A stretch of 64,000 nucleotides of DNA from Candidatus Nanoarchaeia archaeon (lineage in GTDB: Archaea > Nanobdellota > Nanobdellia > Woesearchaeales > DATDTY01): contig DATDTY010000033.1 of the NCBI GenBank assembly GCA_035290625.1, positions 20,482 through 84,481 on the forward strand, written 5' to 3'. Each line of letters starts with the position of its first letter. The stretch's first letter is position 1. Positions 168-59,456 of this stretch are shown piece after piece. Made by a program: the position numbers and the translations under genes. The notes under the pieces were generated by a model, which saw nothing but the letters and a program-made list of their open reading frames with translations, had not been told where the DNA came from and made no database searches.

Positions 168-323
168 GGCAGCGTTCAAAATCTCCCGGGTTGCCATCGG
201 CTCGCCTGAGCGTTCTAAGGAATAAAGCTGATATCCCCGAGGGGGCAAGTCCCCCTATCAGCTGTGCATCTGCCTGTAAAGAGGCTCGCAAGAATGGTGG
301 CAACCTTCATTTTGAACGCTGCC
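168..323. repeat. Diverged member of inverted-repeat element family 1 (156 bp). Perfect 15-bp terminal inverted repeats ggcagcgttcaaaat / attttgaacgctgcc. The inner second stem (ggttgccatc / ggtggcaacc) and the central ccccgaggggg hairpin are arranged as in the canonical copies.
   Basis: Inverted repeats, inner stems and a central gctgata-tccccgagggggcaagtccccc-tatcagc hairpin read directly. The architecture parallels the copies at 1636, 11286, 20934 and 50612 but uses different arm sequences. Flanked by tagaacca...tagaatca. Confidence 0.5.
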
Positions 324-661: not shown

Positions 662-1407
662 ACCATCACCTTTGATTCCAAGAAGATGTAGTAGAGAAGC
701 CAGACGATTCCGCCAATCAGCAATGCCCAGAAGAACGAGAAGATACCTACGAAATAGATAAGGAGCCCGTATCCGACGATGCTGCCAACAGTAAAGGCGT
801 AGGTCAGGCGAGAATAATAGAAGAATCTGCTGCCATCCAGCGGAGGGATAGGCAGAAGGTTGCCGATACCATATGCCCAGCCGATGACAAACAGCTTTGA
901 TATCAACGCGCTCTGCCACCCGAACCAGATATCGAGCGTCTTAAAGAAGCTGACAAAAAGAATTGAAGCCAATGGCCCGGAGAAGGCAATTGTTCCGTAT
1001 GCTGTAATGTTTGTCCCAGGCCTGAACCACCCTAAGCGGTGCGCCGGAAGGAAGTGGAGAAAAACCCCTCCTGGTGCCAGGAGCCAGAACCTGCCTTTCG
1101 AGAGAAGCGCAATGATAAGCCCGATCCCAACCCCATACAGCCATAGTTTGTATTCCACCCTGAACCCCTGGTAGAATCCGTAGATCTTCTGGACTGAGAT
1201 GTGGACTAGAATGACTGCAGCAACAAGAACTAAGCTTTCTGTCATGTTCATGGCCCAATCAGTGATGTTGAAGGCCTCTCTCCTGTCATTGAATCCGATA
1301 ATGAATGCAGAAGCAATAATCGCTACCAACACCGCAATTGTCTCATTGTACTCAAAGCGGAAGTCTGTCTTCGTTTTGTAGATTACGTCTTGCACTTTCC
1401 AGGGCAT
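658..1407 (-). CDS. Polytopic membrane protein related to M50 / site-2 protease (NLLPIPPLDGSR motif). No HExxH found; the corresponding segment reads LVHISVQ.
   Basis: LLPIPPLDG motif characteristic of S2P/M50. Multiple TM segments. The zinc-binding HExxH is absent from the read translation. Confidence 0.5.
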   Translation of the reverse strand: MPWKVQDVIYKTKTDFRFEYNETIAVLVAIIASAFIIGFNDRREAFNITDWAMNMTESLVLVAAVILVHISVQKIYGFYQGFRVEYKLWLYGVGIGLIIALLSKGRFWLLAPGGVFLHFLPAHRLGWFRPGTNITAYGTIAFSGPLASILFVSFFKTLDIWFGWQSALISKLFVIGWAYGIGNLLPIPPLDGSRFFYYSRLTYAFTVGSIVGYGLLIYFVGIFSFFWALLIGGIVWLLYYIFLESKVMV

Positions 1408-1469
1408 GCAGCATTTCTAAGAAATTATGTATTTAAAGCTTTGGGCTCCTTAAGCTCTGTCCAGCTAAG

Positions 1470-1586
1470 GGTTGCCGCCCTTTCTGTGAGGTTTTGAACC
1501 AAGACATCAGCACCGACAAGGGAGTCGCCCCCATGGAGGAATGTCGGCTAGCAGCAGAAACAACGCAACCGAACTTGGCGGCAACC
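1470..1586. repeat. Structured repeat family 3, copy A (117 nt). Closed by the 10-bp stem GGUUGCCGCC ... GGCGGCAACC. Homologous to 46242..46359.
   Basis: Terminal 10-nt segments are exact reverse complements. Internal blocks (CUUUCUGUGAGG, AUCAGCAC, GAAACA) are shared with copy B. An outer 9-bp inverted repeat gctctgtcc/ggacagagc lies at 1453 and 1606. Confidence 0.45.
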
Positions 1587-1635
1587 CGATCCTCTATGAG
1601 ATTCAGGACAGAGCCTGTTGGCTTACCCTATGCTC

Positions 1636-1771
1636 GGCTCAGTAGAAAGTCAATCGGCATCGAGCTCGCTTGTGAGGGCATAGGCGATTGCTGACACCCC
1701 CGAGGGGGCATACCATCTGTCAGCAGTGCTGATGAAGCTCGCAAAAATGATGCCGGACTTTCTACTGAGCC
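1636..1771. mobile_element. MITE-like element family 1, copy 1 (136 bp). 16-bp perfect terminal inverted repeats GGCTCAGTAGAAAGTC / GACTTTCTACTGAGCC. 8-bp target-site duplication ctatgctc at 1628-1635 and 1773-1780.
   Basis: Inverted repeats and direct duplications read directly. Nested inner stems GGCATC/GATGCC and GCTGACA/TGTCAGC around a CCCCCGAGGGGG hairpin. The 3' end supplies the stop codon of the adjacent TraB-like gene. Confidence 0.75.
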
Positions 1772-2472
1772 TCTATGCTCACAGAATAGGATATATCAGA
1801 TTCACCTGGGCGATGCGATTTCAGCAGCAGGCTGATCCCTTCCTTATGCCCTGCTCCAACGACTGCAACAACTTTCTTATCCGGATGCTGGGCAAGGATT
1901 TTTTCGAGCTCTGATGCCATGTGCCGGTTCCTCTCTTCGATCAGCACCTTGTAGACATTCGGATACCTGTCCTTGACCTTAGTCATGAGTTTTTTGATAA
2001 GCTGCTCCTCAGGAACCTTCCTTATATCAAACTCGAACTCAGGCTTACGGATTACTGCCCTTCCTAACGCCTTTAGGATATCCAGCACAAACCGCCACTT
2101 TTCCTTCCAGCTTAATGTCTCAGAGAGCCTCTTCAATGTGATCTCGATATCCTGGTCTATCAATGCAATTGGAATGCCTTTCTTCCTTGCATGCATGATG
2201 GCTGTTCTCATCTCTTCTCCTGGGGATACTCCCACAAGGTCACCCAGCTTACGCTCTGCCCAGGCTCCTATCAAGGCAAAGAGATACCCTTTGATGCCTA
2301 TCCTCTTCCAGCTCGCTCTTTTTGCACTGGTTTTTTCAAACAGGCCACGAATGCGCTTTGCATCAATCTCAAGGCAGACAACCGCAGGGCTGTTGGCATC
2401 TATGGCTTCTGCCACTTCCCTTATGCTTTGGGCTGCAATATGGCTTGTTCCTATAAGGATGAGATGTTTCAT
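1762..2472 (-). CDS. TraB/PrgY (GumN) family protein
   Basis: N-terminal ILIGTSHIA ... VCLEID pattern typical of TraB-family proteins. The last 2 codons and the stop lie inside MITE copy 1. Confidence 0.6.
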   Translation of the reverse strand: MKHLILIGTSHIAAQSIREVAEAIDANSPAVVCLEIDAKRIRGLFEKTSAKRASWKRIGIKGYLFALIGAWAERKLGDLVGVSPGEEMRTAIMHARKKGIPIALIDQDIEITLKRLSETLSWKEKWRFVLDILKALGRAVIRKPEFEFDIRKVPEEQLIKKLMTKVKDRYPNVYKVLIEERNRHMASELEKILAQHPDKKVVAVVGAGHKEGISLLLKSHRPGESDISYSVSIEAQ

Positions 2473-7511: not shown

Positions 7512-8276
7512 TCAGTCGTTCTCCACTCTTGGAGCAAGAATAAACGTAAGATTCAGCCTGTCGGTGACTGTGTAGGATACCTTGAGCGGATAGTCCTTGT
7601 TGAAGAGGATTTCCACCTCATCTGCAATCTTTGCCCCTCCCATCATCTTTTTGAGGTACTCTACGGAGTATTTTGCCTTGACCTTGTCTTCATTGTCAGC
7701 CTTGATGCGTGTTATCTCGTCAGCAGGGATCTCGATTGATACCTTGTTGAGGTCTCCCTCGGCAGTGATGTTGAGCTTTTTCTGGTCTCCTATCAGCGTA
7801 AGAGAGTCTGCAACAACATTGGCGTCTTCAATGGCATTATTCAGTATTTGGGAAGTTGTCATGACACTGATGGGGAATTGAAGCTCTGGAATCTTCTGCT
7901 TCCTCTCCTCAACCTCAATCAGCGGAAGATGGAACGTCCTTGATGTGCTTCCTTTCAGGTCTATCCTGAGCTTGTTGTCTGCAAGCTCAAGGCCTATCAT
8001 GTCGTTTGGGGAAACCCTCCGGAGAATCTGCTTGAGATTGCTGAGGTTTATTGCGAATTCAACATTTTTCGGGACATTGTACTCTGTAAACGCGCTTGAC
8101 ACCATCTTGAAGACGACCATAGCCACGTTTGCAGGATCCATTGCAATTAGGTTAAGGCCCTCTTTGGTTGCAGTGAATTTTGCTTCGTTCACAAGGTCTG
8201 ATATGACAGAAATGCTCTCCTTAAAGTATCGCGGCTCTGCTAAGATTGCTTTCATTGTACCCCCTGTTTGCAGCAA
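7512..8276 (-). CDS. pcn: DNA polymerase sliding clamp PCNA (alternative start at 8255, MKAIL)
   Basis: Length and sequence pattern match archaeal PCNA (FKMVSSAF ... LAPRVE). A TATA-like atttaaat sits at 8309-8316. Confidence 0.8.
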   Translation of the reverse strand: MLQTGGTMKAILAEPRYFKESISVISDLVNEAKFTATKEGLNLIAMDPANVAMVVFKMVSSAFTEYNVPKNVEFAINLSNLKQILRRVSPNDMIGLELADNKLRIDLKGSTSRTFHLPLIEVEERKQKIPELQFPISVMTTSQILNNAIEDANVVADSLTLIGDQKKLNITAEGDLNKVSIEIPADEITRIKADNEDKVKAKYSVEYLKKMMGGAKIADEVEILFNKDYPLKVSYTVTDRLNLTFILAPRVEND

Positions 8277-11285: not shown

Positions 11286-11525
11286 GGCTCAGTAGAAAGT
11301 CAGTCGGCAGTGGCTTGCAAGCGAGCAAGGCGAGCTTGCTCGCTAGCCACCGGCTCGCTTGTGCTTCCTTCACTGTTTGCTGACACCCCCGAAGGTGCTA
11401 AAAAGAGCCATGCTCTTTTGGCACATCAAAACGCCAGAGGGCGTTTTGATTGGGCCAACCCTCTGTCAGCGGTGCTATAAAAGTAAATAAGCTCGCAGAA
11501 AGGATGCCGGACTTTCTACTGAGCC
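11286..11525. mobile_element. MITE-like element family 1, copy 2 (240 bp; carries an extra internal palindromic insertion). Same 16-bp terminal inverted repeats. Flanked by tttttg.
   Basis: Terminal repeats identical to copy 1. The internal insert gcaagcgagcaaggcgagcttgctcgc is itself palindromic. Confidence 0.7.
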
Positions 11526-20933: not shown

Positions 20934-21078
20934 GGCTCTGTAGAAAGCCAATCGGCATCGGGCTCGCCTGTGGGGAGATAGGCGATTGCTGACACCCCCG
21001 AAGGGGTCTACCCCCTGTCAGCAGTGCTGATGAAGCTGAAGAAGCTCGCAAAAATGATGCCGGGCTTTCTACAGAGCC
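20934..21078. mobile_element. MITE-like element family 1, copy 3 (145 bp). Terminal repeats GGCTCTGTAGAAAGCC / GGCTTTCTACAGAGCC, with two compensatory base changes relative to the other copies. 7-bp flanking gtgaatc.
   Basis: A->T and T->C changes in the left arm are matched by T->A and A->G in the right arm. Internal 9-bp duplication gaagaagct. Confidence 0.7.
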
Positions 21079-21122
21079 CGTGAATCCTATAGTTTTATAA
21101 AATTCATGCCTCTTCTCTCTTT

Positions 21123-30361: not shown

Positions 30362-30498
30362 GATGTATGCGGGAGACAGGCAGCGCAACTCACTTCGCTC
30401 GTTGCTGGTCTGTCTTCCTCGCTCATTTCATTCACTGCGGGAGACAGGCAGCGGAATTCGCTGCGCTCATTCCTGGTCTGTCTCCCTTGTCTTTTGAC
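30357..30498. repeat. Two tandem tRNA minihelix-like units (about 70 nt each). Each ends, in tRNA sense, with the 13-nt tRNA-Leu 3' end CCUGUCUCCCGCA. The first overlaps the L18e start codon.
   Basis: tgcgggagacagg occurs three times in direct orientation (30357, 30431, 30499). Units are about 90% identical to 11008..11075. Hairpin arms gggagacaggc / gtctgtcttcc. Confidence 0.55.
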
Positions 30499-30582
30499 TG
30501 CGGGAGACAGGATTCGAACCTGCGTAGGCACTAAGCCACATGGTCCTTAGCCATGCCCGTTTGACCGCTCCGGCACTCCCGC
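30499..30582 (-). tRNA. tRNA-Leu, class II, anticodon read as AAG (loop CUAAGGA), 84 nt, no intron
   Basis: Acceptor GCGGGAG/CUCCCGC. D arm CCG-GAGCGGUCAAA-CGG. Anticodon stem CAUGG/CCAUG. Variable arm UGGCUUAGUGCCUAC. T arm GCAGG-UUCGAAU-CCUGU. Discriminator A. Confidence 0.75.
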
Positions 30583-30593
30583 AAACCGGACTG

Positions 30594-31367
30594 TCACTTT
30601 TTTAGGAGATCTTTCACTTCCTCTGCATTTTTCTGTATGATGCCGAGCGCGGCGTCAACCATTTCCTGAATCGTCAGCTGCCCGAATGGCTCTATAATCA
30701 TCACAATCTCGTTCTTATCTTCTCCGAAAACGATGTGCTTGTCGCTGTAGCTCGGATTGCAGGCATGGCACATGACGAGTTTTTCTTTGTTGACCGTCGC
30801 AGAGCTCTCTTTGATGTCAAAAATATCAAGCGGGAAACTCTTTGCGTATTCTGCATCTATCTTTCCGTTGACCTCTACTGTGGGCCGATACCTGTAGGTC
30901 ACATGCCCGGGAGACCACTTCGCGTGGATTTTTCCAGAGCCGAGCGTTGCAGTTCCCTCAACCTCAATCTCCTGGCCCTTGAGAAGCTTCACGATCGGGG
31001 TGTTTGGGAAGACTGGCCTGATTTTTGGATCTTTGAATTTCATCTCGCTCGCCATCACTACGCTCGGGCCTTTTCCAGACAGCGCCATCTTGACCTCGCA
31101 TCTGGCGCACCCTTTGCCGCCGCATTTGCACTCTTCCCTCTTGTTGTAGGTCTTCAGGTCGGATTTCAGCACAACCAATCCCAGTCGGTGGGCAATCATC
31201 TCGTCGAACAGTATGGAGCTGTTTTTTCTGAATTCAACGTCTTCCACTGCAAGTGTCGGCACTTCCATCATAGTATACCTTCGAATCATATTTGCAACTG
31301 CTGGAGTGATCCCATGCAGCAGCAGGACTGCCTTATCTTTCTCGCTCTTGAATACTTTGGCATCCAT
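30594..31367 (-). CDS. rpoD: DNA-directed RNA polymerase subunit D (Rpb3 homolog); start at MDAKVFK
   Basis: Archaeal RpoD pattern including the Cys-rich insert CKCGGKGCARC. Confidence 0.8.
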   Translation of the reverse strand: MDAKVFKSEKDKAVLLLHGITPAVANMIRRYTMMEVPTLAVEDVEFRKNSSILFDEMIAHRLGLVVLKSDLKTYNKREECKCGGKGCARCEVKMALSGKGPSVVMASEMKFKDPKIRPVFPNTPIVKLLKGQEIEVEGTATLGSGKIHAKWSPGHVTYRYRPTVEVNGKIDAEYAKSFPLDIFDIKESSATVNKEKLVMCHACNPSYSDKHIVFGEDKNEIVMIIEPFGQLTIQEMVDAALGIIQKNAEEVKDLLKK

Positions 31368-42858: not shown

Positions 42859-42932
42859 AAGATTAAGAAATTGGATAATAAACAACGGGAGAATAACCAT
42901 GGAGCTTGAAATTAAACAACGGGAGAATCATC

Positions 42933-43652
42933 ATGGAACTTGAAATCAAAGACCTTTATGTAAGCATCGGCGGGAAGGATATTGTGAAGGGGCTCAGCCT
43001 CACCCTCGCTCAAGGAGAGGTCATTGCACTCATGGGTCCGAATGGGTCTGGAAAGTCAACTCTTGCTTCAGCGATTATGGGAGACCCCCACTGCGATGTG
43101 CAGTCAGGAAAGATACTCGTGAACGGAGAAGATATCACTGGCCTCTCTCCAGATAAACGCGCACAGAAAGGGATTTTCCTCAGCTTCCAGTACCCAAAAG
43201 AGATCACTGGGGTGACGCTTGCCAACTTCCTCAGGACAAGCTACAACTCGCTGCGAGAGAACCCTCTCGGAGTGATGGACTTTCAGAAACTGCTCAAGGA
43301 AAAGATGCACGATCTCCAGATGGACTCACAGTTTACGAAGAGGTATCTCAATGAAGGATTCTCAGGAGGAGAGAAGAAGAGGACTGAGATCCTGCAGATG
43401 ATGGTGCTTGAGCCTACGTTCGCTATTCTGGACGAGACTGACTCTGGATTAGATGTTGACGCACTGCGAATTGTCGCCCATGGGATTAATGCCATGAAGG
43501 GGCCTAAGCGAGGCATCCTGATCATCACTCATTACCACAGAATCCTTGATTACATCTCTCCAGACAAGGTCTTCATTATGAAGGACGGGAAGATTGTGAA
43601 GTCCGGGGGGCATGACCTGGCCATTGAGGTCGAAAAGAAGGGGTATCAATGA
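42933..43652 (+). CDS. sufC: Fe-S cluster assembly ATPase SufC (ABC-type). Start at ATG 42933; the track's TTG start at 42906 lies inside a duplicated leader.
   Basis: Walker A GPNGSGKST. ABC signature LSGGEKKR. Walker B ILDETDSGLD. Confidence 0.85.
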   Translation: MELEIKDLYVSIGGKDIVKGLSLTLAQGEVIALMGPNGSGKSTLASAIMGDPHCDVQSGKILVNGEDITGLSPDKRAQKGIFLSFQYPKEITGVTLANFLRTSYNSLRENPLGVMDFQKLLKEKMHDLQMDSQFTKRYLNEGFSGGEKKRTEILQMMVLEPTFAILDETDSGLDVDALRIVAHGINAMKGPKRGILIITHYHRILDYISPDKVFIMKDGKIVKSGGHDLAIEVEKKGYQ

Positions 43653-46177: not shown

Positions 46178-46241
46178 TACCCCTTATAAGTCTGTGTTTG
46201 TTTAAATAGTTTTGCTATCGTTTTGACCTGGCCCGATTGGA

Positions 46242-46359
46242 GGTTGCCGCCTCTTTCGCGAGGCACAATAACTCCTATCAGCACAAGCGGAGGGGGTCGT
46301 CCCATACGGGGCGGTGCCGCTCTTCGCTGGAAACAGCAAGAGCCGAGCTGGCGGCAACC
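46242..46359. repeat. Structured repeat family 3, copy B (118 nt). Same GGUUGCCGCC ... GGCGGCAACC closing stem as copy A. Contains a GAAA tetraloop hairpin CUGGAAACAG. Flanked by an 18-bp direct repeat ctatcgttttgacctggc (46215-46232 and 46388-46405).
   Basis: Terminal complementarity and flanking duplication read directly. Shares the AUCAGCAC and GAAACA blocks with copy A. Confidence 0.45.
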
Positions 46360-46915
46360 CGAACCATGCAAGATTTGGGGTAGTGCCCTATCGTTTTGAC
46401 CTGGCTGGTTCTGAAGAAGTCCTTATAATCTCATCCGGAAATCCGTACTCGAACGGAAATCCGTACTCGAAGTATACCTTACTAGAAGTATAGAATTATG
46501 GGCAGAAATAAGCCGCCTTTTGTGGGGCCCTCCCCTTTTGGAAAGGTTCATCGAAGGCCCTGCCAGCATTTGACTTAGCGTTCTGTGAACTTGCACAAGC
46601 CGGGGCTCGCCTTTCATCCATTCACAGGAAAATCCATTGGATTTTCCTGTCCCGGAAAATCTCTGATTTTCTCGGGCCTCAAAATCGTCTGCAGGTTATC
46701 TCAGTTTTGTCGCCAAAACCTTCTCATGCGTCTTCCTCTTTGAGGGGGGTCTTGTTTCTGCGCGGTTGCCATCCCTTTCGAGATGTGCCTCTCGGCACCG
46801 GCTGCTCCATCCTAAATAAGGGAATTTAACCCTTATCTTCGGACTTCAGTGGGCGGACTTTCCTCAGTTTCCCGAAAGCCAGCTTTCTGCCCGCTTTCTG
46901 AAAAGCTCCGCTCAT

Positions 46916-50611: not shown

Positions 50612-50753
50612 GGGCTCAGTAGAAAGTCAATTGGCATCAGACTCGCTTGCGCTCGTATTCGTGTATGCTGCCCCCCGAAGTTGGCAACTCTGTCAGCAGT
50701 GGTTATGACTGCAAAGAAGCTCGCAAAAATGATGCCGGACTTTCTACTGAGCC
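50612..50753. mobile_element. MITE-like element family 1, copy 4 (142 bp). 16-bp terminal repeats identical to copy 1. Perfect 8-bp target-site duplication gtattgag (50604-50611 and 50754-50761).
   Basis: Terminal repeats and abutting direct duplications read directly. Lies upstream of gyrA. Confidence 0.8.
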
Positions 50754-52448: not shown

Positions 52449-52496
52449 GACCTTTTGGTATACCCTTGCTTATAAAAATCTTTCCAGCCAATGGTG

Positions 52497-52896
52497 GCAT
52501 TGAAAAGTCATGCAATGCCCTTTGTGAGCCTTCTATTCAAAGTACAGAACAGCGACAAAGGGGTTGCTCCATACGGAAAATGTCGATTCCCATGAGAGTA
52601 TGCGCAAGGCGAAGTCGGCATTGCCGAACGAAGTGAGCAACTTTTCAATGCGACCCAGCCAACGGCTCTACTGAAACCCCCGGCAGTGCCCATTTGCGAG
52701 GCTTCTCCATGACTAACGGCGCATCGACAAGAAGGCTGTCTCATCCGGAGAATGTCGATTTAAATCCAAGGCATTCCGAGCCGAGCCTGGCACTGCCTGC
52801 GAAGCGTTTCAGCAGAGCCCAGCCCAGAGCGCTATTGAAAAGCCATGCAACGCCAACTTGCGAGGCTTAAGAGCAACCGCTTCCCTCGAGCAACGA
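52497..52896. repeat. Repeat family 2: about 2.3 degenerate tandem copies of a roughly 170-bp unit bounded by cattgaaaagt ... acttttcaatg
   Basis: Unit 1 (52497..52655) has a 12-bp terminal inverted repeat gcattgaaaagt/acttttcaatgc. Shared blocks ttgcgaggcttct, aatgtcgatt, ggcattgcc recur in units 2 and 3. Confidence 0.55.
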
Positions 52897-52923
52897 ATTA
52901 CTCAACCCAGCATCACACAGAAA

Positions 52924-59235: not shown

Positions 59236-59278
59236 GCAAGAGTCAAGAAAAAAGGTGTGTTTAAAAAGTTATTGGGCT

Positions 59279-59441
59279 GGTGCCATTGAAAAGTTGCTAG
59301 CTTCGCTCGGCAGCGCCAAGTTCGCCATGCGCAGATGCTAAGGAAAAACGACATTCTCCGAAGGCGCCAACCCTCTTGTCGTTGCACAGTCTTTTGTTCC
59401 AATGGCTCACAGGAGGGCGCTGCATAACTTTTCAATGGCGC
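59279..59441. repeat. Repeat family 2, single inverted copy (163 bp) with terminal inverted repeats around ccattgaaaagtt / aacttttcaatgg. Flanked by a 7-bp direct repeat ttgggct (59272-59278 and 59442-59448).
   Basis: The reverse complement aligns along the whole length with unit 1 at 52497..52655 (shared cattgaaaagt, tgtgagcc, ggagaatgtcg, tgcgca, agcaacttttcaatg). Confidence 0.55.
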
Positions 59442-59456
59442 TTGGGCTTGGAAATG

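Follow-up and report, generated by a model that had tools for sequence, protein, structure and literature searches.

We describe here a set of noncoding repeats in a 64-kb stretch of DNA from a Candidatus Nanoarchaeia archaeon (contig DATDTY010000033.1), which at its full length we call the window. In the intergenic region at 52449-52923, between the MJ0538-like/scpB operon and the gene of a 108-aa basic protein, three related units stand head to tail, and a further copy lies 6.6 kb away in the opposite orientation, beside secF. With a probability of roughly 0.78, we take these repeats to be fossil copies of a miniature inverted-repeat transposable element (MITE) that was mobilized in trans by an IS5-like partner, inserted at the edges of promoters, built up a stack by repeated insertion, and carries a folded core. 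Several parts of this interpretation have direct support, namely the family, its terminal repeats and duplications, a partner with identical ends, the adjacency to promoters, and the covariation.

The units are numbered 1 to 3 by their distance from the MJ0538-like/scpB promoter, and the copy at 59279-59441(-) is referred to as the distant copy (Table 1). The operon genes, which were identified by PF27325 (MJ0538) and PF04079 (ScpB), and the gene of the 108-aa protein all lie on the minus strand, in a window whose gene content is archaeal (Nre, MJ0538, Orc1-like). A sequence-only reading of this DNA had placed repeats at both sites and aligned unit 1 with the distant copy over its whole length, and the similarity is indeed far above chance: the two are 73% identical over 164 nt (blastn, E 1.7e-25, matched span 59275-59437). 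Unit 1 also matches unit 2 (66% over 106 nt, E 2.6e-8), and the partial unit 3 matches each of the other three copies (E 1e-4 to 4e-6). A profile made from three copies with nhmmer recovers the three full copies at E 1e-45 to 1e-53 and picks up a fourth locus at 1462-1589. That all this is chance or low-complexity likeness, with no family behind it, is a view to which we give practically no weight. Such a view could draw on the units being only 55-73% identical and on Tandem Repeats Finder, which did not report the array at 52.5 kb when run on the window, but the program misses the array because its units are too diverged, and the E values above, together with 1e-17 from the covariance model described below and hundreds of copies elsewhere, contradict it.

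This covariance model, R1, was built from 51 copies and was used for both the window and the loci retrieved from other genomes. It finds at least six full-length copies in the window, three at the known loci and three more (Table 1), plus shorter relatives, so the element is not confined to the two loci that were first noticed. Pairwise identity among the window copies is 41-68%, and they score 60-88 bits, versus 120-150 bits for copies elsewhere. Beyond the window, we looked for the 33-nt core that the copies share (CGACAARNNNGNYGNNNCNNNNGRRRAATGTCG) in a set of genomes with one per species, using a pattern sized for about two chance matches. The scan returned 107 stretches, several per metagenome-assembled genome (MAG), and nearly all of them come from MAGs of Woesearchaeota, Nanoarchaeota, and Nanoarchaeia or from MAGs labelled "uncultured Methanosarcinales"; the few bacterial matches look like chance or an unrelated short repeat. 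In metagenomes, the pattern occurs in at least 114 stretches, mostly from groundwater and sediment samples, and in viral contigs it gave no match. R1 finds 124 copies in 689 kb of retrieved loci. On one contig of a Candidatus Zipacnadia bacterium (JALGVE010000005.1; L018, L037, L068), the core pattern hit a dense array of short repeats with the motifs GGAGAATGTCGG and CGACAGGAATGTCGCC, the architecture of which is unrelated to the element.

The element is noncoding and about 163 nt long (copies of 156-176 nt), with no conserved open reading frame (ORF); the ORFs that cross the units are short ones that vary from copy to copy. Its outer helix, P1, has about 15 bp and the tips GGC...GCC, with arms of 12-17 bp in nearly all copies, and is 93.6% paired over the 124 copies. 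Inward from P1, a spacer of 3-5 nt precedes P2, which has about 7-11 bp; then come a 5' junction, reading either YTTTGYGAG or AGGTCGAGC, the short P3 helix and a variable loop, and the core hairpin. On the 3' side of the core come a junction (CGAGAAGC or CGAAC), P2', a mini-hairpin (GAGC-GNNA-GCGAG), and P1'. In unit 1, the terminal repeats are GGTGGCATTGAAAAGT and ACTTTTCAATGCGACC; the 12-bp inverted repeat gcattgaaaagt/acttttcaatgc, which the earlier reading took as the boundary of the unit, is real and belongs to a longer arm of 16 nt with 94% complementarity. The inner helix changes on both sides between the window copies, reading GCAATGCC/GGCATTGC in unit 1, GCAGCGCC/GGCGCTGC in the distant copy, GCAGTGCC/GGCACTGC in unit 2, and TTGCCGCC/GGCGGCAA in the copy at 1.5 kb, which shares its interior with the other copies and differs from them in its terminal arms. 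In the R1 alignment, 95% of the pair cells hold standard pairs, versus 30-47% with the partners slid, and 815 cells are changed on both sides, figures that lean towards structure because the alignment was fitted to the model. An independent run with MAFFT and RNAalifold gives the same helices, with compensatory changes in 22 of 30 pairs. Fold prediction for the unit, proposed earlier as a check, gives a z-score of -4.1 for unit 1.

The same comparison bears on a group of elements of about 140 nt in the window, from which the repeats had been set apart as a second family distinct from "family 1." This separation does not hold. The ~140-nt elements match R1 end to end, have the terminal repeat GGCTCAGTAGAAAG (two copies being 87% identical), and share with the ~163-nt copies the terminal-repeat type, P2, and the TTTGCGAGC junction; their core, CTGACAG-ATGGTATGCCCCCTCGGGGGTG-TCAGC, is related in type to the main core. 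By these sequence features, they are a sister subfamily of the ~163-nt element and no separate kind. They look younger than the ~163-nt window copies, and they too adjoin TATA boxes, for example a box at 21094(+) beside 20934-21078.

The evidence for mobility starts from the flanks. When GGC...GCC is taken as the ends, the copies are flanked by 9-bp direct repeats, the sequences of which are unrelated between copies (for example AGTTTTTCC, GAAAAATCG, CCTTTCACT, CCTTCAACA, and AAGACAATC). The duplication is kept with at most one mismatch in 41 of 91 full copies, and those in the window match at 7-8 of 9 positions. The TTGGGCT direct repeats that had been noted around the distant copy are present exactly as described (59272-59278 and 59442-59448), but the family duplicates 9 bp and not 7; as 9-mers, these flanks (TTGGGCTGG versus TTGGGCTTG) match at 8 of 9 positions, which fits the norm of the family. 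With terminal inverted repeats, duplications, and many loci, the description of a palindromic interspersed element with flanking target duplications thus stands.

A candidate partner was found at one retrieved locus (L057), which holds a 1195-bp insertion sequence with ends of the matching type (GGCTCCATCCGAAAAAT) and a 9-bp duplication (CGCTGGAAG). Its 315-aa ORF matches PF01609 (DDE_Tnp_1) at E 6e-17 and 62.5 bits, versus a cut-off of 23. This protein has 583 homologues at E<=1e-10, some of them named as transposases of Woesearchaeota/Nanoarchaeota, and most lie on contigs of about 1.0-1.6 kb, as expected for collapsed repeats. The insertion sequence of one homologue (P0101) occurs at several different sites with 9-bp duplications, and its terminal repeat, GGCTTCATCCAAAAAAT, has 17 nt identical to those of a MITE subfamily (L113/L102/L092 and others). 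Structurally, then, the element is a MITE, and the partner, as judged from its sequence, is IS5-like with IS903-like ends and duplication. The partner group is abundant in DPANN archaea and is a divergent one among IS5-like elements.

Other known systems were considered and set aside. A link to IS6/IS26, suspected from the GGC..TGTTG..AAA ends, was rejected because the duplication is of 9 bp and not 8 and because the transposase of the partner is DDE_Tnp_1/IS5-like. Diversity-generating retroelements, CRISPR repeats, box C/D RNA, ribozymes, the omega RNA of IS200/IS605, and the bridge RNA of IS110 were all rejected on anatomy (terminal repeats plus duplications, and no gene of a reverse transcriptase, TnpB, or IS110 nearby) and for want of an Rfam match.

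The insertion sites of the family have a constant layout. Outward from the element, the 9-bp duplication is followed by an A-rich hexamer (consensus gaAAnn), a TATA box (TTTaTAtA), about 22 nt, and an ATG. A strict TATA box lies 9-22 nt beyond an end in 48 of 91 copies, compared with 2.4% per flank at random; the commonest offset is exactly 15 nt, which accounts for 17 of 29 cases 5' of the element and 11 of 24 cases 3' of it, and the ATG most often follows the TATA box after 22-24 nt. Of the 41 copies in which the duplication is intact, 35 are accompanied by a box, 14 of them solely at the 3' end, 14 solely at the 5' end, and 7 at both ends. Exactly 6 nt separate the duplication from the TATA box in 26 of 42 cases, and larger gaps are rare. 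The pattern was replicated on metagenome copies (19 of 25, versus 19% at random control sites). Host genes of the window show the same TATA-22 nt-ATG spacing, from which it follows that the boxes are genuine host promoter elements; the spacing would fit leaderless or short-leader transcripts. Window copies outside the stack have the corresponding flanks: the secF promoter lies directly beyond the duplication of the distant copy, the 5' side of the copy at 1453-1615 abuts TAAGGAGCC-CAAAGC-TTTAAATA-22 nt-ATG on the minus strand, and a TATA-like box lies beyond the 5' end of the copy at 46225-46387. For the full insertion sequence, about 5 of 7 distinct sites obey the same promoter-edge rule, with the flanks read by eye. 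Moreover, full insertion sequences from different samples (L120, L121, and L123) occupy one and the same 9-mer, TCTTTTCTA, in either orientation, and this target also holds two tandem insertion-sequence copies separated by exactly 9 bp. In L123, the right flank (TAAAAAGAA) lacks the 9-mer seen on the left, a difference suggestive of rearrangement between copies.

Two accounts of this adjacency may be weighed. According to the first, it arises by selection, such that only insertions outside the core promoter survive in compact DPANN genomes. Intergenic space is small, an insertion downstream of the B recognition element (BRE) would split the promoter from its gene, and MITEs generally accumulate in intergenic DNA (PMC10969869). 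Selection seems an unlikely explanation, however, because any position further upstream should be tolerated equally, whereas the gap has one exact value in most cases, and because the same 9-mer has been hit repeatedly and in both orientations (L120, L121, and L123, the window stack, and L024). So sharp a gap of 6 nt, together with the repeated use of the very same 9-mers, speaks for target choice, and we infer that this choice, and not survival alone, underlies the promoter adjacency. One simple basis for such a choice was examined and rejected: the target hexamer does not copy positions 10-15 of the adjacent terminal repeat, as there is no correlation by subfamily (0.473 versus 0.481 shuffled), and the two share only generic RAAA.

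The left end of the insertion sequence itself (L114-L124) reads CCAAAAAA-TAGATTAA-23 nt-ATG and so matches the BRE-like hexamer, the TATA box, and the 22-24-nt spacing of host genes. Its inner terminal repeat may double as the promoter of the transposase. In MITE copies, the 5' arm of P2 stands where the insertion sequence has the TATA-like part.

The tandem stack at 52.5 kb can be read in the light of this layout. On the minus strand, the sequence beside unit 1 reads ATTGGCTGG (the duplication), AAAGA, TTTTTATA, 22 nt, and the ATG of the MJ0538-like gene, as that beside the distant copy reads CCAGCCCAA, TAACTT, TTTAAACA, 22 nt, and the ATG of secF; this order puts unit 1 in the canonical position beside the operon promoter. 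Moving away from the promoter, one meets CCAGCCAAT, unit 1, CCAGCCAAC, unit 2, CCAGCCCAG, unit 3, and finally CCCAGCATC, which may be a fourth, decayed copy of the duplication. The array that had been described as about 2.3 degenerate tandem copies is real, although its units are redrawn in Table 1 as two full copies and a deleted third. On its left side, the latter retains the terminal repeat AGCGCTATTGAAAAGC as well as the 5' arm of P2 and the TTGCGAGGCTT junction. The sequence GAGCAAC...ACTCAA is probably what remains of its right end, a part that was recognized by eye only.

Both repeated insertion of the element into itself and unequal crossing-over had been put forward for the tandem arrangement. 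Local duplication, by unequal crossing-over or by slippage between the 9-mers, followed by divergence, would account well for head-to-tail units in one orientation, for a near-constant period (171 and 164 nt from start to start in the repeat search), and for the same 9-mer between units, and recombination between direct repeats commonly makes arrays. We nevertheless find it quite improbable. First, unit 1 is nearer to the copy 6.6 kb away (68% aligned identity, 73% by blastn) than to unit 2 (55%, and 66% by blastn). Second, unit 2 differs in terminal-repeat type (GGCTCTACTGAAAC) from units 1 and 3 (GGYGNYATTGAAAAG), and units 1 and 2 differ in the state of the core described below (AGG/TCC/GAA and GAG/CTC/GAG, respectively). 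Third, one 9-bp target has been re-used by independent insertions at other loci. The identities, repeat types, and core states thus speak for separate insertions, and of the two earlier proposals, repeated insertion holds, not into the element itself but next to it, as the 9-mer between the units indicates, whereas crossing-over does not.

If the stack grew by repeated insertion at the promoter edge, the promoter-proximal copy of the duplication would re-create the same target after each event, and later elements would insert between the promoter and the earlier copy, giving promoter-T-u1-T-u2-T-u3. The age of the units would then rise with distance from the promoter. The data on decay are consistent with this, in that the 9-mers are more diverged the farther they lie from the promoter, arm complementarity is 94% in unit 1 and 78% in unit 2 (terminal repeats GGCTCTACTGAAAC and GTTTCAGCAGAGCC), and unit 3 is internally deleted, and we infer the order of insertion on these grounds. 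Comparable arrangements exist elsewhere. At L024, an intact copy stands by the promoter and a terminal fragment lies beyond it, with a common duplication, and stacks or re-used targets are also seen in L120/L121/L123.

Within the element, the most constant part is the core hairpin, CGACA-AGGGGGAYGYCCCnnnCGGGG-AA-TGTCG. These 33 nt are near-invariant, whereas identity falls to 40-60% in P1, P2, and the loops, and the hairpin is extended by two pairs that vary yet stay paired (AU 54 and GC 51 at one; CG 71, GC 28, and UA 18 at the other). At core positions 7-9, 16-18, and 24-26, 126 of 205 distinct copies have GGG/CCC/GGG, 29 have GAG/CTC/GAG, and 22 have AGG/TCC/GGA, with at most 3 of each intermediate. 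Positions 16-26 and 17-25 form Watson-Crick pairs, and the purines on the 5' side track these pairs, as G.G-C <-> A.A-U, at two layers (7/26/16 and 8/25/17). As far as sequences can tell, this three-way covariation is consistent with purine-purine-pyrimidine base triples. Pairing of segment 1 with segment 2 instead was rejected because it explains one variant state but not the other, and a pseudoknot between the G-run of the core and the CC after P2' was rejected because those C's are already in P2. Since the variant states are spread over subfamilies whose ends differ, the linkage among the three segments is maintained and not merely inherited, and the core appears to act as a folded single strand. 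The fold z-scores range from -4 to -8, and both strands fold about equally well. With low confidence, we regard the core as an accessory feature kept by selection on the propagation of the element itself.

Such strong structure could also mean that the copies are host genes for structured noncoding RNA, or cis-regulatory motifs, with the inverted ends being a mere closing helix. Very strong covariation in four helices, a near-invariant core, three-way covariation like that of tRNA triples, the low z-scores, and the excess of G-U over A-C in P2 would all suit this possibility. It seems distinctly improbable to us because the copies are flanked by unrelated 9-bp direct repeats and have ends identical to those of an insertion sequence that bears a transposase. 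Furthermore, they occur many to a genome, in both orientations to their neighbors and upstream of promoters, outside the adjacent transcription units, and they have no internal TATA box, belong to no Rfam family, and fold alike on both strands. In a search against Rfam 15, the window gave only three tRNAs at the gathering score; the sole match on the repeat region was snoZ6 at E=1, and seven loci with well-kept copies gave none. The two interpretations overlap in part, as a mobile element may also make a functional RNA.

The mechanism that we propose for the MITE can be put as follows. A 315-aa DDE transposase of the divergent IS5-like group would move the element in trans. It would make a staggered 9-bp cut at the upstream edge of a promoter, 6 bp before the TATA box and just outside the BRE, and the element would land in either orientation while the core promoter stays intact. 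The core would be a folded single strand, likeliest the RNA of the core strand, and might, for example, assist the transposase or a host factor, either as an accessory site or as a cofactor. A more specific version, in which the transposase is guided to the edge of the complex of transcription factor B and TATA-binding protein (TFB/TBP), or reads the BRE/TATA, and in which the core, with its base triples, is a folded RNA or single-stranded DNA cofactor that nonautonomous copies need for their mobilization, seems rather unlikely at present. If it were true, guided integration would be a prokaryotic counterpart of the Ty3/Tf1-type targeting to the transcription machinery.

A number of observations weigh against the interpretation as a whole or against parts of it. 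The first group concerns the partner. The best NCBIfam match of the L057 ORF is IS5_2 (E 7e-26, 91 bits), which is under the cut-off of 140, and the 315-aa transposase is only 21-26% identical to IS5-family plasmid genes (tblastn) and 20.7% identical to that of IS903B over 164 aa. A tblastn search for transposases in the window, 99 genome loci, and 114 metagenome loci (1.37 Mb) returned only L057. The window copies are probably old and dead, with no active partner found in this genome. All six contigs with the same pyrG represent one strain (99.8-99.99% identity), with no indels and no differences in presence or absence of copies, and among them no empty site was found. The second group concerns the core. 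R1 finds no match in the L057 insertion sequence at E<1e-3; its 3' noncoding hairpin, GAGACTTGGCTCCTTCGGAGT, resembles core variant B by eye only. Insertion sequences of the P0101 type have structured 3' noncoding regions that lack the conserved core, which means that the core is not needed by every autonomous relative. The balance of G-U over A-C pairs, which is a weak strand test for RNA, is 75 versus 47 on the model-fitted alignment and roughly 27 versus 20 in a hand tally of MAFFT pair types, and it is reversed in the core stems (2 versus 11) relative to P2 (30 versus 9).

The remaining adverse points concern the target and the stack. The promoter adjacency could in part come from purifying selection in these very compact genomes. 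Units 1 and 2 have about equal R1 scores, so the order of insertion rests on the degrees of decay. Finally, nearly the same 9-mer, CCAGCC(C)AA, flanks all four copies of the unit 1 subfamily, at two loci separated by 6.6 kb, and its orientation relative to the element is constant; at either locus, it is preceded by TTT on the 5' side. The window holds no notable excess of the motif, and two sites with nearly one 9-mer are not what simple independent transposition would predict. Possible explanations are a target preference specific to the subfamily or a copy event other than transposition.

Table 1. Positions of the repeats and adjoining promoters in the window
Feature	Position	Strand	Details
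MJ0538-like/scpB promoter	52471..52483	-	BRE-like AAAGA(T), TATA box TTTTTATA at 52478, 22 nt, then ATG 52448; box 22 nt before ATGGAGAAC
Duplication copy a, CCAGCCAAT	52484..52492		between BRE-like hexamer and unit 1, abutting both
Unit 1, full MITE copy	52493..52655	+	R1 84 bits, E 3e-17, model 1-164; core hairpin 52553-52585
Duplication copy b, CCAGCCAAC	52655..52663		first C doubles as last base of unit 1
Unit 2, full MITE copy, other subfamily	52664..52819	+	R1 86 bits, E 1e-17; core 52725-52757
Duplication copy c, CCAGCCCAG	52819..52827		first C doubles as last base of unit 2; read from sequence
Unit 3, internally deleted copy	52828..52905 (about)	+	nhmmer E 6e-9, profile positions 1-58; right boundary uncertain
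Distant inverted copy, unit 1 subfamily	59279..59441	-	R1 86.6 bits, E 9e-18, match 59279-59442; core 59349-59381
Duplication of distant copy	59272..59280, partner 59442..59450		7 bp exact TTGGGCT; 8/9 as 9-mers
secF promoter	59258..59271	-	TAACTT, TATA-like TTTAAACA at 59265, 22 nt, ATG 59235; box 22 nt before ATGGCAGAA
Further full copy, other terminal repeats GCTCTGTCCAG.../...CAGGACAGAGC	1453..1615	+	R1 88 bits; core 1514-1546
Further full copy, diverged core	168..323	-	R1 77 bits, E 1e-15
Further full copy, diverged core	46225..46387	+	R1 60.6 bits, E 6e-12; duplication CTATCGTTT(T)
~140-nt relatives ("family 1")	1636..1771, 20934..21078, 50613..50753	-	R1 full-length, 37, 50, and 24 bits
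240-nt variant of the ~140-nt relatives	11286..11525	+	terminal repeat GGCTCAGTAGAAAG

Several further observations were made on related loci. A copy at L020 (1260-1426(-)), in a MAG labelled Methanosarcinales, lies directly upstream of an MJ0538-like gene followed by scpB (1448-2054(+)). This is the same operon as in the window, with protein identities of 33% (MJ0538-like) and 49% (ScpB); the label may be wrong, or the same type of promoter may have been hit repeatedly. A metagenome contig of the same strain as the window (L005) ends at window position 52496, exactly at the start of unit 1, and such repeats break short-read assemblies. Two loci, L080 (1529-1830(+)) and L109 (about 7590-7880(-)), hold a noncoding element of about 300 nt with the ends TAATACTTCAGC...GCTGAAGTATTA and 9-10-bp duplications (CTGTGGATTG, CTGCTAAAA), which carries the P2-core-P2' module. 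Its second domain, GCGTC-CCCC-GTA-GGGGG-CAACT-CCCC-GCGACGC, looks like a reverse-complement core; a tRNA beside the module was considered, and ARAGORN finds none. At L044, 47 nt separate a 207-nt variant of the element from a 127-nt Rfam tRNA match (673-799(-), 57.6 bits), the length of which suggests an intron.

The window also holds other repeats. A 68-nt unit is repeated 2.2 times at 30368-30511 with 82% matches and overlaps the 3' side of a tRNA gene (30499-30582(-)); it may be a remnant of tRNA-linked integration. A weak match to the covariance model lies near it at 30726-30875. At 42879-42950, a 34-nt unit that includes GGAGAATAACCATGGAACTTGAAAT is repeated 2.1 times with 89% matches and looks like a duplicated gene start.

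Among known systems, the IS903/IS5 family shares with ours the GGC ends and the 9-bp duplication. In IS903B on plasmid Rts1 (1057 bp), the terminal repeat is GGCTTTGTTGAATAAATC and the duplication GACACAACG; one MITE subfamily (L046/L030) starts with GGCTTTGTTGAA, the first 12 nt of the IS903 repeat, and the DPANN partner likewise has about 1.1-1.2 kb and a single DDE_Tnp_1 transposase. The differences lie in the distant relation of the transposases and the score below the NCBIfam IS5 cut-off, as given above, in the archaeal host, in insertion at a fixed distance from the BRE/TATA, and in the long structured interior of the MITE with its conserved core. IS903 prefers a palindromic target pattern and is not known to prefer promoters. 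Among structured MITEs of bacteria, Correia duplicates TA, and several carry their own promoters or sites for integration host factor. The DPANN element differs from these in its ends and duplications, has no obvious promoter, and leaves the host promoter intact. It resembles Correia of Neisseria, ERIC, RUP/BOX, and RPE in that all are short, noncoding, and multicopy, have terminal inverted repeats, form a hairpin from the whole element, and often lie upstream of genes (PMC10969869). Insertion at a fixed distance from a promoter element is not reported for any of these in the searchable papers.

In archaea, MITEs are known from Sulfolobus, Halobacterium, Haloquadratum, and a few other groups, as derivatives of insertion sequences mobilized in trans (PMC10969869). 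The DPANN family differs from those of the three named genera in its hosts, in its insertion-sequence group, and in a core that is conserved across subfamilies with diverged ends. A woesearchaeal genome is among the most MITE-dense of archaea, with 105 per Mb (PMC11602168), and a preference for promoters or target sites goes unmentioned in a survey of archaeal insertion sequences from 2026 (PMC13343696). In the searchable literature, the coverage of which is incomplete and does not extend to ISfinder, we found no description of this family, of insertion at the BRE/TATA edge, or of the core.

Some promoter-directed elements of eukaryotes work in a comparable way. Ty3, which integrates at start sites of RNA polymerase III, Tf1, which integrates at promoters of RNA polymerase II, and the TRE elements of Dictyostelium also take a fixed position beside a site of the initiation machinery, a "safe haven" that spares the coding DNA of a compact genome. 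These are retroelements, the integrases of which are tethered by known protein contacts. Here, the elements are a DDE insertion sequence and its MITE, the host is archaeal, and direct recognition of the sequence or shape of the BRE/TATA is equally possible. As to the core, purine-purine-pyrimidine triples with the pattern G.G-C <-> A.A-U occur in tRNA, such as 9-23-12. The core shows the same pattern of covariation but has no relation to tRNA in sequence or fold (none by ARAGORN or Rfam), and its triple is read from covariation only.

In general, these repeats would represent an uncatalogued and abundant group of insertion sequences and MITEs of DPANN archaea, whose ultra-small genomes have already been noted as MITE-dense (PMC11602168). 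The three-way covariation of the core predicts a base-triple fold, a motif that can be tested directly. As a by-product, the elements mark the positions of promoters in organisms that have no transcriptomic data. If the targeting is real, it would be a rare example among prokaryotes of DDE transposition guided by promoters, and it would account for the persistence of transposons in genomes that have hardly any DNA to spare.

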